Shown here piece by piece: positions 1 to 4,424 of a DNA stretch of 64,000 bases. The position numbers were made by a program, and so were the translations under genes. Each line of letters begins with the position of its first letter. Positions within the stretch are counted from its first letter, which is position 1. The stretch comes from an uncultured delta proteobacterium (GTDB taxonomy: Bacteria; Myxococcota_A; UBA9160; SZUA-336). The notes beneath the pieces were generated by a model, which saw nothing but the letters and a program-made list of their open reading frames with translations, had not been told where the DNA came from and made no database searches. The stretch is from contig CAVPHD010000005.1 in assembly GCA_963704165.1 (NCBI GenBank), forward strand, positions 1-64,000, read 5' to 3'.

Positions 1-1
1 C

Positions 2-94
2 CTCAGTCCGACCGCGTTCGGCGCTCGGCCCGGCGCGGTTCAGGACGCGGCGATGCAGACGACGCTGATGGCGATGGCGGGGCGGACGGCATGA
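2..94 (+). CDS. 3' end of a gene entering the window; TIGR03086/maleylpyruvate-isomerase-like metal-binding protein (partial)
   Basis: Frame 2 reads LSPTAFGARPGAVQDAAMQTTLMAMAGRTA-stop (TGA 92-94); the AFG...DA....L.A.AGR ending resembles this family's C-terminus. Only 30 residues visible. Confidence 0.45.
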   Translation, partial: LSPTAFGARPGAVQDAAMQTTLMAMAGRTA

Positions 95-100
95 AAGTCC

Positions 101-129
101 TCGACCTGATTCCGCGACCGGGTTAATCT
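101..129 (+). promoter_or_regulatory. sigma70-type promoter for the RIO kinase leader
   Basis: TCGACC (101-106), 17 nt spacer, TAATCT (124-129), directly after the upstream stop codon. Confidence 0.5.
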
Positions 130-169
130 GCGCCGAGCTCCGAACCCGTGGAGCGAAGGGAGGCGTGAC

Positions 170-223
170 ATGGCAGCCAGACTCGTTGGCTACTCGTGCT
201 CACGCCCCCGGCGTACCCGGTAG
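170..223 (+). CDS. putative leader peptide (uORF) MAARLVGYSCSRPRRTR, 17 aa
   Basis: GGAGG (159-163) 6 nt before ATG 170; TAG 221-223; lies inside a highly structured leader. Confidence 0.55.
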   Translation: MAARLVGYSCSRPRRTR

Positions 224-262
224 ATCCGGTAGGTTCGAAGACCGATCTCTGGCGAGGAATCC

Positions 263-303
263 GGCGAGTCGCAGGCGTGAGTCTGCGGCTCGTTTCCGTT
301 TCT
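263..303 (+). terminator. intrinsic terminator/attenuator hairpin in the RIO kinase leader
   Basis: 12-bp stem CGAGTCGCAGGC (265-276) / GTCTGCGGCTCG (281-292) with two G-U pairs, GTGA (GNRA) tetraloop, followed by TTTCCGTTTCT. Confidence 0.6.
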
Positions 304-322
304 CCTCGCCGTGGAGATCGAA

Positions 323-1114
323 GTGTCGAAAGAGCGAATCGGTTCGCCGTTGTCCGGCGCCGCGTTCACGCGCGGAATGCTCGCGGACCAGGAGAAGGCC
401 GCCGTCCTGCGCGAGTTCGGCGGGCAGGGTCTGATCACGGACGTGCTCGGTGTGATCGGCGACGGCAAGGAGGCAACCGTCTACTGCTGCGCCGCCGACC
501 CGTCGACCGGTGTCGAGCTTCTGGCGGCGAAGGTCTATCGCGCCCGGAAGTTCCGCGCGTTCGCCCGTGCGCGCGCCTATGCGGGTTCGCGCGTGGTGCT
601 CGACGCGCGGGCCGGCCGTGCCATGAAGACGCGCACCGAGAAGGGGCGGCGCATGGCGCACCACGCGTGGATCGAGTGGGAGTGGGAGACGCTGTGTCTG
701 CTTCACGACGCGGGCGTCGGCGTTCCGAATCCGCTCGCCGCCTCGGACGATGCGATCCTGATGGAGTACGTCGGCGATCGCGGCGGAGCGGCACCGAAGC
801 TCCGGCACGTCGAGCTCACGCCGCTGCAGGCGCGGGCGGCGCTCGAGCGGCTGCTCGCGGACGTCGAGCGCATGCTCGACTGCCACCGGGTACACGGCGA
901 TCTCTCGGCCTACAACGTGCTCTGGTGGCAGGAGCGCCCCGTCATCATCGACGTGCCCCAATCCGTCGATCTGCACGCGAGCCACGACGGCTACCTGCAC
1001 CTTCTTCGCGACGTGCAGAACCTCGACCGCTACTTCGCGAGGTACGGCTTGTCGGTCGGCGACTTCGCGGAGAGAACCTGGCGCAGCTACCTGCGCGGTC
1101 AGCTCGGCCGTTAG
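323..1114 (+). CDS. RIO1-family atypical Ser/Thr protein kinase/ATPase
   Basis: Motifs GDGKEATVY, AAKVYR, LMEYVG, VHGDLSAYNVL, IIDVPQ. ORF track starts at GTG 311; in-frame GTG 323 has GGAG (313-316) upstream and is preferred. Confidence 0.9.
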   Translation: MSKERIGSPLSGAAFTRGMLADQEKAAVLREFGGQGLITDVLGVIGDGKEATVYCCAADPSTGVELLAAKVYRARKFRAFARARAYAGSRVVLDARAGRAMKTRTEKGRRMAHHAWIEWEWETLCLLHDAGVGVPNPLAASDDAILMEYVGDRGGAAPKLRHVELTPLQARAALERLLADVERMLDCHRVHGDLSAYNVLWWQERPVIIDVPQSVDLHASHDGYLHLLRDVQNLDRYFARYGLSVGDFAERTWRSYLRGQLGR

Positions 1115-1152
1115 ACCTACGCCTTTCTCGGATCGTGTCCTAAGCTGGCGGC

Positions 1153-2553
1153 GTGGGTGAGGGAGCCGGGCGCGTGCCGGTGCGCGTGGTGTCGTATCCG
1201 GGAGACGTCCGCGTTTCGGGCGTGTCGGCGGAGGTCGTGTGCGCGCGCACGCTCGCCGAGCTTCGCGCCGCGCTCGAGGCATCGACCCCGGCGGCCCTCG
1301 TGATCGACCTTTCGAGCGGCGGCCACGGCGCGCTCGACCTGCTTCGCGAACGTCGCGTGCGCGGCTCGACCGTGCCCGCGTTGCTCCTGGCACCACACGG
1401 GGACACGGAGGCCGCGGAGCGCGGGCGCACGTTGCGCCACTGCACGGTGCTCGCGAGTGAGAGTGCGACGAGTGCCGTGGTATCGACGGCGTTGAACGAG
1501 CTGCTCGGTCTCTCTCCCGCGGCACCTGCCGACGCATCGCGCGCGCCAGCGATGCTCTTCAAGACCGACTCACGCGGCGGTTTCACTCACTTCACGCGCC
1601 GCTGGCTCGCCTATCTGGGAATTCCCGAGAGCGCCGCGCGAGGTCTCGGCTGGGTCGAGAGCCTCCATCCCGACGACCGCGGGGCCTGGGCGGCTTCGTT
1701 CTCGGCGGCGCTCGAGGAGTCGGCCGCATTCGAGCTCGATCTGCGCGTGCGAACCGCTTCGGGAGTCCACCGATGGGTGCGGGTCTCCGCGTCTCCGGGC
1801 TTCGACGCGAAAGAGGGGTTCACGGGCTTCGTCGGCTCGTTCTTCGAGATCGACGACCTCGTCGAGGCGCGCGATCGAGCCCGCGCGGACGTCGCCAAGC
1901 TCGAGGCGGTGAGCGGTGAGCTCGAGGAGGTCGCCTTCGCCGGCGCGCACGATCTGCAGGAGCCGCTGCGCAGCGTCGAGCAGACGCTGAAGCAGGCGCT
2001 CACGGGTGAATCGACCGACCTGGCGCTCGCGTTGCGTCAGATCGCCCACATGCGGGATCTGCTGCGCGATCTGGTCGACTACGCGGCCTCGAGCGCGGTT
2101 CACCTCGCGGTCGAATCGGTCGACCTCTCGCAGGCGGTCGACTGGGCGCTCGACAACCTGCGGCCAGCGATCGCCGAGTGCGAAGCCGAGGTCAAGATCG
2201 AGACGCTCTCGCGCGCCGCGGCCGATCCGATCCAGATCGCGCGCGTGTTCCAGAACCTGATCGGAAACGCACTGCGCTTTCGCGGCGAGAAGCCCGCGAT
2301 CATCTCCGTCGGTGCAGAGGCACGCGAGCGCGACGTGCTCGTCTGGGTGCGCGACAACGGAATCGGCATTCCCGCACAGCACCACGAGACGATCTTCCGC
2401 GTCTTCGAGCGTCTGCACGCAGGCGAGCTTCCGGGCACGGGCGTGGGGCTCGCGATCTGCCGCCGCATTCTCGAGCGCCACGGCGGCCGGATCTGGGTCG
2501 AGTCGGAGCCCTCCCGCGGCGCGACGTTCCACTTCACGCTGCCACTCGGGTAG
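1153..2553 (+). CDS. PAS-domain sensor histidine kinase with a degenerate receiver-like N-terminus
   Basis: PAS (GWVESLHPDDR, HRWVRVSA), H-box AHDLQEPLR, N-box FQNLIGNALRF, DNGIGI, IFRVFERLH, GTGVGLAIC. Confidence 0.9.
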   Translation: MGEGAGRVPVRVVSYPGDVRVSGVSAEVVCARTLAELRAALEASTPAALVIDLSSGGHGALDLLRERRVRGSTVPALLLAPHGDTEAAERGRTLRHCTVLASESATSAVVSTALNELLGLSPAAPADASRAPAMLFKTDSRGGFTHFTRRWLAYLGIPESAARGLGWVESLHPDDRGAWAASFSAALEESAAFELDLRVRTASGVHRWVRVSASPGFDAKEGFTGFVGSFFEIDDLVEARDRARADVAKLEAVSGELEEVAFAGAHDLQEPLRSVEQTLKQALTGESTDLALALRQIAHMRDLLRDLVDYAASSAVHLAVESVDLSQAVDWALDNLRPAIAECEAEVKIETLSRAAADPIQIARVFQNLIGNALRFRGEKPAIISVGAEARERDVLVWVRDNGIGIPAQHHETIFRVFERLHAGELPGTGVGLAICRRILERHGGRIWVESEPSRGATFHFTLPLG

Positions 2554-2612
2554 CTCGCGTCGCTGCGGGCGGTGTACAGGGATCGGTCGATCGGGACTAC
2601 CCTGAGTCCGAG

Positions 2613-4424
2613 ATGAGCGTCGGCGCGAACACAACCCGCCGGGTCCCGGCGATCGGTGCGGTCCTGGCGTTGGCGACGGCCGCCGCCTACGGGAGCTTCA
2701 CGGGCTTCGAGTTCGTGAACTGGGACGACAACGTCTACGTGACCGGGAACTCGCACGTGAAGTCCGGGCTCACGTTCGAGTCGATCCGCTGGGCGCTCGG
2801 TGCGACGGCCGCTCACAACTGGCACCCGCTCACCTGGCTCTCTCACATGCTCGACGTCGAGCTCTTCGGCCTCGACCCCGTCTGGCATCACCGGACGAGC
2901 CTCCTGCTCCACGTGTCGACGACGTTGCTCTTGTTCCGCGCGTTCTTCCGCATGACCGGCGCGCTCGGGCAGAGTGCCTTCGTCGCGGGGCTCTTCGCGC
3001 TCCACCCGCTGCACGTCGAGTCGGTGGCCTGGGTCGCGGAGCGCAAGGACGTGCTCAGCGCGCTCTGTTTCGCGGTCGCGCTCTGTCTGTACGTTCGATT
3101 CGCGGAGCGGCCATCGCTCTTGCGCTACCTGTGGGTCGCCCTGGCGTTCGCGGCCGGGCTCGCGGCCAAGCCCATGCTGGTGACGCTGCCCGCCGTCCTC
3201 CTTCTGCTCGACGTCTGGCCGCTCGGACGCGTTCGCCTCGCGCCTTCGCCCGACCTGCGGCGGCTGGGTACGCTCGCGCTCGAGAAGCTGCCGCTCCTGG
3301 CGCTGAGCGCGGCGGCGAGCGTGATGACGGTGATCGCGCAGGGCACGGCCATCTCGATCGCCTCTCGATTCACGCTCGGGGAGCGAATCGGAAACGCGAT
3401 CGTCTCGCTCTGTCGCTACGTCGTCGCGACGCTCTGGCCGACGGGGCTCTCGATCAGCTACACGCATCCGGGAAGCTGGCCCGTGGGCGTCCTCGTGGGA
3501 AGCGGACTGGCTCTCGCGGGGATCACCGCGGTCGCGCTGCGTGCGCTCCCGACGCGTCCCTGGTTCACCATCGGATGGCTCTGGTACGTCGGCATGCTCG
3601 TGCCCGTGATCGGCGTGATCCAGGTCGGGGAGCAGGCGATGGCCGATCGGTACACCTACCTGCCGTCGCTCGGTCTGTTCGTGATCGCCGCGTGGGGGAT
3701 TCCCGCGGTCGTTCCCGATCACCGTTTGCGTTCGCGCTCGCTCGTGTTCGCAGCGATCGCGGTGCTCGCGGTCTTCGGAGCGCTCACGCGAGTGCAGACT
3801 CAGTACTGGCGAAACAGCAACGTCCTCTGGGCTCGCGCGCACGCGGTCGATCCGCGCGATCCACTCGCGCTCGAGGTGCTCGGTGTGCTCGCCGAGGAGC
3901 AGAATCGCCACGGCGAGGCGCTCGGCTTGTACCGGCGCGCGCTCGAGATCGACTCCCGACGCCAGAACTCGCAGTACAACCTGGGCAATCTCTTGTTGTG
4001 GTACGGCCGGGCCGAAGAGGCGCTCGGTCCGCTGCGCGAGGCGGTGCGACTCCGACCGGACTTCGCGGTCGCCTACGAAGCGCTCGGCCACGCCTATCGG
4101 GGTCTCGGTGAGAGCTCGTTGTCGCTGCAGGCATTCCAGCGCTCGGTCGAGCTCGATCCCAATGCGGCGAACGCCCAGTACAATCTGGGTCTCGCGCTTC
4201 TTCGGGCGGGCCGCGCGCGCGACGCCCTGACACCGTTTGGTGAAGCCGTCCGGGTCCACCCGGAATTCACGATGGCCTTCGTCGGCCTCGCGGACGCCCG
4301 GATGGTGCTCGGAGATCGTGCGTCGGCCCTCGAAGATGCACGTCGGGCCCTGCTCCTCGCCCGCGAGCAAGGCGATTCGGAGCTCGAAGCGCAGATCTCG
4401 ACCCACTTCACGGATCTGCAGTAG
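2613..4424 (+). CDS. TMTC-like multi-pass membrane protein with C-terminal TPR repeats (GT-C type, putative protein O-mannosyltransferase)
   Basis: FVNWDDNVY, NWHPLTWLS, FALHPLHVESVAWVAERKDVL, MADRYTYLP, then TPRs (AQYNLGLAL). Start placed at ATG 2613 inside ORF 2178..4424. Confidence 0.85.
   Translation: MSVGANTTRRVPAIGAVLALATAAAYGSFTGFEFVNWDDNVYVTGNSHVKSGLTFESIRWALGATAAHNWHPLTWLSHMLDVELFGLDPVWHHRTSLLLHVSTTLLLFRAFFRMTGALGQSAFVAGLFALHPLHVESVAWVAERKDVLSALCFAVALCLYVRFAERPSLLRYLWVALAFAAGLAAKPMLVTLPAVLLLLDVWPLGRVRLAPSPDLRRLGTLALEKLPLLALSAAASVMTVIAQGTAISIASRFTLGERIGNAIVSLCRYVVATLWPTGLSISYTHPGSWPVGVLVGSGLALAGITAVALRALPTRPWFTIGWLWYVGMLVPVIGVIQVGEQAMADRYTYLPSLGLFVIAAWGIPAVVPDHRLRSRSLVFAAIAVLAVFGALTRVQTQYWRNSNVLWARAHAVDPRDPLALEVLGVLAEEQNRHGEALGLYRRALEIDSRRQNSQYNLGNLLLWYGRAEEALGPLREAVRLRPDFAVAYEALGHAYRGLGESSLSLQAFQRSVELDPNAANAQYNLGLALLRAGRARDALTPFGEAVRVHPEFTMAFVGLADARMVLGDRASALEDARRALLLAREQGDSELEAQISTHFTDLQ

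Follow-up and report, generated by a model that had tools for sequence, protein, structure and literature searches.

The window analyzed here, a stretch of 64,000 nucleotides, carries near its beginning a RIO kinase gene whose leader is, in our judgment with high confidence, a real and conserved attenuator. This leader contains a short upstream open reading frame (uORF), and a strand within its coding sequence can pair either with the Shine-Dalgarno (SD) region of the uORF itself or with the top of a terminator hairpin. On the basis of modelled folds, we regard it as reasonably probable that the leader works in the manner of the vmlR and rli80 leaders, with ribosomes that are held on codons 1–4 (or 5), at the beginning of the uORF, inducing the kinase. 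It would then be set apart from known leaders by an SD serving as anti-antiterminator, an antiterminator placed within coding sequence and a RIO kinase as target. The literature listings and openings of abstracts covered showed no attenuator of a RIO gene; supplements (e.g., Term-seq regulator tables) and subscription papers lay outside its scope and could hold one.

All elements of the leader are located on the forward strand. A putative sigma-70-type promoter (101–129) was read from the sequence as TCGACC (101–106) and TAATCT (124–129) separated by 17 nt. This proposal of the first-pass annotation is favoured by the hexamers themselves and by similarly spaced -10-like hexamers in most close relatives, but a consensus promoter scan called no promoter here. 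Transcription would start near position 136. A 6 bp hairpin (137–154), seen in folds, stands directly before the uORF SD. The following strand A (158–168) comprises this SD (GGGAGG, 158–163) and the spacer, and would also act as anti-antiterminator. The uORF (170–223) has 17 codons and encodes MAARLVGYSCSRPRRTR, a peptide with five Arg residues; its codons 10–13 form strand B (198–209, core 198–206), the putative switch strand.

Downstream lies a weak middle hairpin (222–248; -5.6 kcal/mol) that overlaps the uORF stop and the SD-hiding arm; similar arms are visible in the leaders of clade 1, to which the window belongs. The 5′ arm of an outer helix (243–258) consists of an anti-SD segment (243–250) and GGCGAGGA (251–258), while its 3′ arm (303–320), recognized from folds and own-arm pairing, includes the kinase SD (GGAG, 313–316). 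Between these arms are the terminator hairpin (265–292; 12 bp stem 265–276/281–292, GUGA loop) and a degenerate U-tract (293–303). Strand C, the partner of B in the antiterminator, corresponds to the top and loop of the terminator hairpin (274–282).

Strand B is complementary to both A and C. The sequence AGGCGTGA is found at 161–168 and again at 273–280, its only two copies within the first 1200 nt, and CTCACGCC (199–206) is the exact complement of 274–281. The uORF, SD, repeat, complementarities and hairpin coordinates of the first-pass annotation all check out in the sequence. Its further helix between CAGACTC (178–184) and 279–285 has the complementarity claimed but occurs in only one of 19 related leaders, and its terminator likewise stands in part: the 12 bp GUGA stem is present, but the U-tract has only five T among its first eight nucleotides and fails the terminator filter applied. 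A consensus scan detected two terminator-like sites against 1.2 expected. The fold of region 135–320 is unusually stable (z = -5.47), with equal stability in 0 of 200 shuffles.

An Rfam search, one of the checks initially suggested, gave no family at threshold for window positions 1–1500 (best score 18.8 bits against a threshold of 80), and a tRNA was the only match among nine related loci. A tRNA-like or Y-RNA-like reading of 222–248 was dropped, there being no Rfam match and the uORF explaining the conservation. By duplex energy the window leader is fourth among 99 SD-led short ORFs in the genome (68% GC), so that complementarity within one sequence of this composition does not go beyond chance; it is conservation, and not complementarity alone, that makes the leader real. 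This modest rank and the Rfam result would suit chance pairings in GC-rich DNA beside an ordinary 5′ UTR. We nevertheless consider such a coincidence extremely improbable, as the layout is conserved in several phyla and absent from most RIO genes of the PA4780 type, and compensatory changes are present.

To describe this conservation we aligned 19 leaders, from the window, 11 genomes of the same genus, one genome of the same family and six metagenome contigs. The kinase is present in all 11 same-genus genomes searched. All 19 leaders contain an ATG-initiated reading frame of 17–22 codons preceded by a strong SD, and the GGAG core of strand A is nearly invariant, so the attenuator proposed in the first-pass annotation has the conserved uORF that it called for. 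The upstream neighbours vary among relatives while the leader stays; in one relative (L002) a tRNA gene (2582–2654, minus strand) is located just upstream of the RIO promoter.

Covariation is clearest in the 5′ hairpin, where five of six pairs show changes on both sides. The 7 bp core of the outer helix (251–257 with 304–310) is paired in all cells of the alignment, with one pair changed on both sides; a total of six such pairs was reached in 0 of 500 shuffles, a control that ignores kinship. This core helix extends across the kinase SD, and the anti-SD arm pairs with its own SD arm in most of the 19 leaders (means of -11.1 and -7.7, as against -8.1 and -5.8 kcal/mol across clades). The B:C helix is paired in 89.5% of 190 cells, compared with 29–47% when the strands are slid, but its covariation, at 2 of 10 pairs, is modest and was equalled in 92 of 500 shuffles. 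The 5′ hairpin and the outer helix, as well as the GTG start of the kinase, are absent from the first-pass annotation.

The number of T residues in the first 8 nt after the hairpin is five in the window, 5–8 (mostly 7–8) in ten other clade-1 leaders and 1–5 in eight leaders of clade 2, in which the U-tract is absent. As an intrinsic terminator, the element is therefore weak in the window and strong in most of its clade-1 relatives. The output of clade 1 is likely to combine termination with SD hiding, whereas in clade 2, which lacks the U-tract, SD hiding is likely to act alone.

We then extended the comparison to 171 RIO loci, 17 duplicate or weak-hit loci having been removed before scoring; 11 had too little upstream DNA, leaving 160. 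A strong-SD ORF of 10–40 codons precedes the kinase in 136 of the 160 loci and, by the same test, in 5 of 33 PA4780-type RIO genes. Since kin are not independent, these proportions are descriptive and do not constitute a test; three of the 33 PA4780-type loci also belong to the 24 misses among the 160, and the uORF was picked by SD strength alone, which in a few cases evidently selected the wrong ORF. By record title, most of the loci come from Chloroflexota, alongside a cyanobacterium and some further taxa; cultured carriers include Ktedonobacter, Dictyobacter, Thermosporothrix and Tolypothrix. Pattern searches covering five Chloroflexota/cyanobacterial genomes gave three matches resembling the RIO leader by sequence in one round and none in another.

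Removal of near-copies left 98 leaders. A hairpin with a U-tract follows the uORF in 70 of them, and strand C overlaps it in 53. For 94 leaders, joint pairing was compared with 30 synonymous recodings each, and in 80 of them the natural codons exceeded the recoded mean (p about 0.06 for the window leader alone). When B was chosen via its pairing with A only, its pairing with the downstream region of the same leader was stronger than the average over 20 foreign ones in 75 of the 98 leaders (-17.5 vs. -15.0 kcal/mol), and in 38 of the 98 none of 10 shuffled versions of that region paired as well. It should be noted that several Ktedonobacterales loci (L036–L040, L047, L067, L071, L072 and others) have two tandem U-tract hairpins after the uORF, the second of which matches strand B, and then a further SD-led short ORF ahead of the start of the kinase.

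To follow the effect of ribosome position, a ribosome was modelled by an assumed footprint that blocks nucleotides -14 to +15 relative to the P-site codon. For window RNA emerged to 282–288, the probability of B:C is 0.98–0.99 with the ribosome on codons 1–4 and marginal on codon 5; at the same lengths it is 0.00 without a ribosome, A:B holding with a probability of about 0.89. Among the 19 close leaders, the B:C probability is at least 0.5 in all 19 at codon 1, in 18 at codon 3, 14 at codon 4, nine at codon 5, three at codon 6 and five without a ribosome; its zero value from codon 8 on (codons 8–14) is imposed by the blocked footprint. When the uORF interior was shuffled, 9 of 228 sequences matched the observed pairing. 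In addition, an anti-SD pattern derived from the sequences seen matched 60 of the 98 leaders, and in all 60 the motif begins at nt 23 or beyond. This places it outside the edge of an initiating ribosome, given as +16 to +18 in the accessible parts of the reports (PMC9226507; PMC12121999).

Equilibrium folding of the full leader was also tried as evidence for a switch and rejected, as it showed none. The terminator probability is near 1 in almost all states, a forced ON fold is worse by 6 kcal/mol at length 297 and by 20.5 kcal/mol at length 335, and in the 12 leaders, out of 19, for which SD accessibility was computed, the kinase SD is paired whatever the state. The ON state would therefore have to be kinetic, its fold being only metastable. 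Kinetic ON states are usual for attenuators.

The mechanism that we favour would proceed as follows. With no ribosome on the leader, A would pair with B, the terminator and the outer helix would form, and the kinase would be off. A ribosome running through the uORF, or stalled on codons 8–17, would cover B, with the same outcome. A ribosome at the start codon or on codons 2–4 would instead cover A and leave B free to capture C as it emerges from RNA polymerase; the terminator loop could not close, and transcription and translation of the kinase would proceed. The outer helix would provide a second layer by hiding the kinase SD. The likely signals are drugs that trap initiation (of the pleuromutilin, lincosamide or tetracycline type) or ribosomes that linger at initiation, and the kinase would serve in a translation-stress response.

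In 70 diverse leaders, codon-1 pairing averages 10.8 bp as against 7.1 bp in synonymous controls, but a strict on/off switch test was passed by 15 leaders and 16 synonymous controls, and in 40 of the 70 the antiterminator forms without any ribosome. The latter behaviour, seen also in the five close leaders mentioned above, and the weakness of A:B in Ktedonobacterales (about -10 to -12 kcal/mol) suggest another possibility, namely a coupling sensor such as whiB7, which operates in this way according to the accessible part of its description (10.1101/2023.06.02.543512). In such a sensor, B:C would be on by default and only a timely ribosome at codons 8–14 would allow termination; A:B would matter little, and slowing before B or failed initiation would induce. 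We judge this to be unlikely, though by no means negligible: A:B wins without a ribosome in the window and in 14 of 19 close leaders, its local pairing can be in place before C has been transcribed, and the anti-SD strand is kept across phyla. The strict test and the ribosome-free pairing in the diverse leaders give the coupling sensor some plausibility, mainly for Chloroflexota. Both models agree in sign, a ribosome on B meaning off.

The initial proposal for the inducer was macrolide arrest at the RPR or RTR motif of the peptide, or Arg limitation. Among the 19 close leaders, the switch strand indeed encodes R-x-R in 14 and SLR, CLR or CFR in five, and the accessible text on the hflXr leader gives RLR as a signature (PMC6310831). 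However, 41 of 98 leader peptides contain R/K-x-R/K, where residue shuffling leads one to expect 37.7, and 3 of the 19 close ones lack it. The strand is moreover read in two frames, the 9-mer CACGTCTCC giving S-R-L in some Chloroflexota leaders and H-V-S in others, while the matching strand in other lineages reads S-A-P or C-A-S. The number of Arg residues ranges from 0 to 8 across leaders and is 0–1 in several (L097 has none). Judging from these sequences, the anti-SD sequence best accounts for the Arg codons, which would be its by-product.

The position of the motifs argues against arrest as well. Codons 12–17 are located on or just past strand B, so a ribosome at RPR (codons 12–14) or RTR (codons 15–17) would mask B, leaving the terminator intact and the kinase off; the Arg codons in general lie on or after this strand. 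In a few full-length folds the terminator probability does fall, to 0.39 and 0.13 with the ribosome on codons 12 and 15, respectively (length 297), but this dip relies on the 178–184 helix of a single leader and is gone at length 303. The leaders thus show neither a conserved R/K-x-R/K motif nor an arrest favouring the on state, the marks of macrolide arrest leaders, nor conserved regulatory codons upstream of or on the anti-antiterminator, as in attenuators of the Arg biosynthetic type. Induction by macrolide arrest or Arg starvation appears highly improbable. What stands of the initial proposal is a conserved attenuator before a RIO kinase, whose folds exclude one another and which probably responds to ribosome position.

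Only slightly more credit can be given to a different trigger, such as binding of the leader by the kinase or by some other protein, or to a peptide with a function of its own. Such a trigger could account for the covarying 5′ hairpin, which possibly leaves the SD region accessible or shields the 5′ end, as well as for the loose common N-terminal pattern of the uORFs (M-T/R/A-A/K-V). The peptide, however, is poorly conserved and its frames differ, and the identity of strand A with the SD suggests that the ligand is the ribosome.

The leader shares with attenuators of the vmlR, rli80 and cplR type a conserved uORF with its own SD and mutually exclusive helices, the latter computational and with modest covariation. 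The features of the known systems given below are those described in the accessible portions of the cited reports. The vmlR leader of Bacillus subtilis (PMC9226507) has, as predicted here, an anti-antiterminator, an antiterminator, a terminator and an SD-sequestering hairpin; a ribosome stalled on or close to the uORF start releases the antiterminator, and a second layer hides the main SD. Its uORF, however, has three codons (MIN), with a single-stranded SD ahead of SL-1, whereas the uORFs here have 17–25 codons, their own SD would serve as anti-antiterminator, and the antiterminator strand is embedded in coding sequence. The vmlR target is an ARE-ABCF protein and not a RIO kinase. In the cplR leader of Clostridioides (10.1101/2022.12.05.519065), induced by start-codon stalling drugs, a 5′ hairpin sequesters the uORF and terminator and SD hiding cooperate, similarly to our leader; it differs in its three-codon uORF and its target, a resistance ABC-F protein.

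The rli80-hflXr leader of Listeria (PMC6310831) resembles ours in the size of its uORF (14 codons, with RLR) and in three-strand attenuation. In both, an ATG mutant is predicted to be off and RLR is frequent. The rli80 ORF, though, covers the anti-antiterminator, whereas here the RLR/RPR codons are the antiterminator strand; arrest at these codons is thus predicted to have the sign opposite to that described for rli80. The actinobacterial whiB7/wblC leaders (10.1101/2023.06.02.543512) similarly tie the antiterminator to uORF translation, efficient translation leading to termination, but their uORF is longer, Ala-rich and responsive to stalls at many codons, and the accessible text describes no SD-based anti-antiterminator. 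The toiL-topAI leader of Escherichia coli (PMC12121999) also responds to ribosomes held at the start codon (tetracycline, retapamulin); toiL, however, pairs directly with the downstream SD and a stall anywhere induces, whereas here a stall over B would repress.

The gene controlled by the leader (323–1114, forward strand) encodes a RIO1-like kinase/ATPase of 263 aa. Its assignment in the first-pass annotation is confirmed by the RIO domain (PF01163; E = 3e-35; 121.9 bits vs. a cut-off of 22), and alignment showed the catalytic motifs to be intact (P-loop, Lys, HGDLSxYN and IIDxPQ). Translation likely starts at GTG 323, since the relatives keep GGAG and GTG or TTG there while the codon at 311 varies. 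In one relative (G005:C3:103356-104148) the RIO gene consists of two tblastn pieces in different frames near the start, a frameshift or an assembly error; its leader is intact. The closest solved relatives of the kinase are Rio1 proteins. With archaeal and eukaryotic Rio1 and with the PA4780 family (NF041645) it shares the RIO domain and the intact motifs, but it scores 183 bits against the PA4780 equivalog, under the 350-bit cut-off, and a quick tree of 65 rows separates kinases of the window type from the PA4780 type with an SH-aLRT of 100. In this tree Chloroflexota sequences surround the kinases of the genus and also lone representatives of cyanobacteria, planctomycetes and proteobacteria. 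The kinase gene may have been transferred together with its leader.

The RIO gene of the window is adjoined downstream by a gene for a histidine kinase with PAS and HATPase domains (1153–2553). A PAS-domain gene also lies 3′ of the kinase in four close relatives and not in clade 2; apart from it, no conserved partner was found among the 59 downstream genes scanned.

In archaea and eukaryotes, RIO proteins act on the small ribosomal subunit. The role of the bacterial RIO kinases is described as poorly characterized in the accessible part of a published account (PMC5815136). It can tentatively be hypothesized that one RIO branch (of Chloroflexota, one Myxococcota family and scattered others) is wired to a sensor of initiation stalls and that its kinases are quality-control or rescue factors for 30S/70S particles. 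If so, they would be the bacterial counterpart of the late role of Rio1 in small-subunit maturation, the leader would form a feedback loop counting initiation complexes that fail to enter elongation because of drugs or immature subunits, and the RLR-like peptides of such leaders would be a by-product of the anti-SD sequence. A sensor in front of one RIO branch allows the inducing translation stress to be asked for directly, and the predicted sign is sharp: stalls at the start codon should induce and stalls on the Arg-rich stretch should repress. Should this sign hold, bacterial RIO would be linked to the ribosome, a design in which the SD of the uORF itself is the anti-antiterminator would be added to the known attenuators, and RLR motifs in leader peptides would have to be read with caution, as they can stem from an anti-SD sequence.

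Finally, a sister leader was revealed in the same genome before a MATE efflux gene (contig C12, minus strand, uORF start at 94603). It is present in 11 of 12 loci of the genus, the twelfth being without upstream DNA, and is composed of an SD-led uORF of 29–42 codons, an anti-SD strand and a GC hairpin with little U-tract; the 3′ end of the uORF is matched by the 5′ arm of this hairpin. Its nascent fold switches for most ribosome positions from codon 1 to codon 24, codon 6 being an exception. A drug-efflux target would fit a translation-inhibitor signal. No such leader was found at nine ABC-F, HflX, RtcB and release-factor loci, where the starts of one ABC-F gene and of RtcB fall outside the stretch inspected. 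Neither these loci nor a downstream partner gene points to a particular stress, which counts against the favoured mechanism. A genome scan by duplex energy for regulon members was not selective and was discarded. A second scan left six intergenic candidates out of 98 and filtered out the MATE leader, which makes it insensitive; one of the six is an SD-led 19-codon ORF on contig C9 (plus strand, 22982), located 85 nt before an ORF of 1857 codons.
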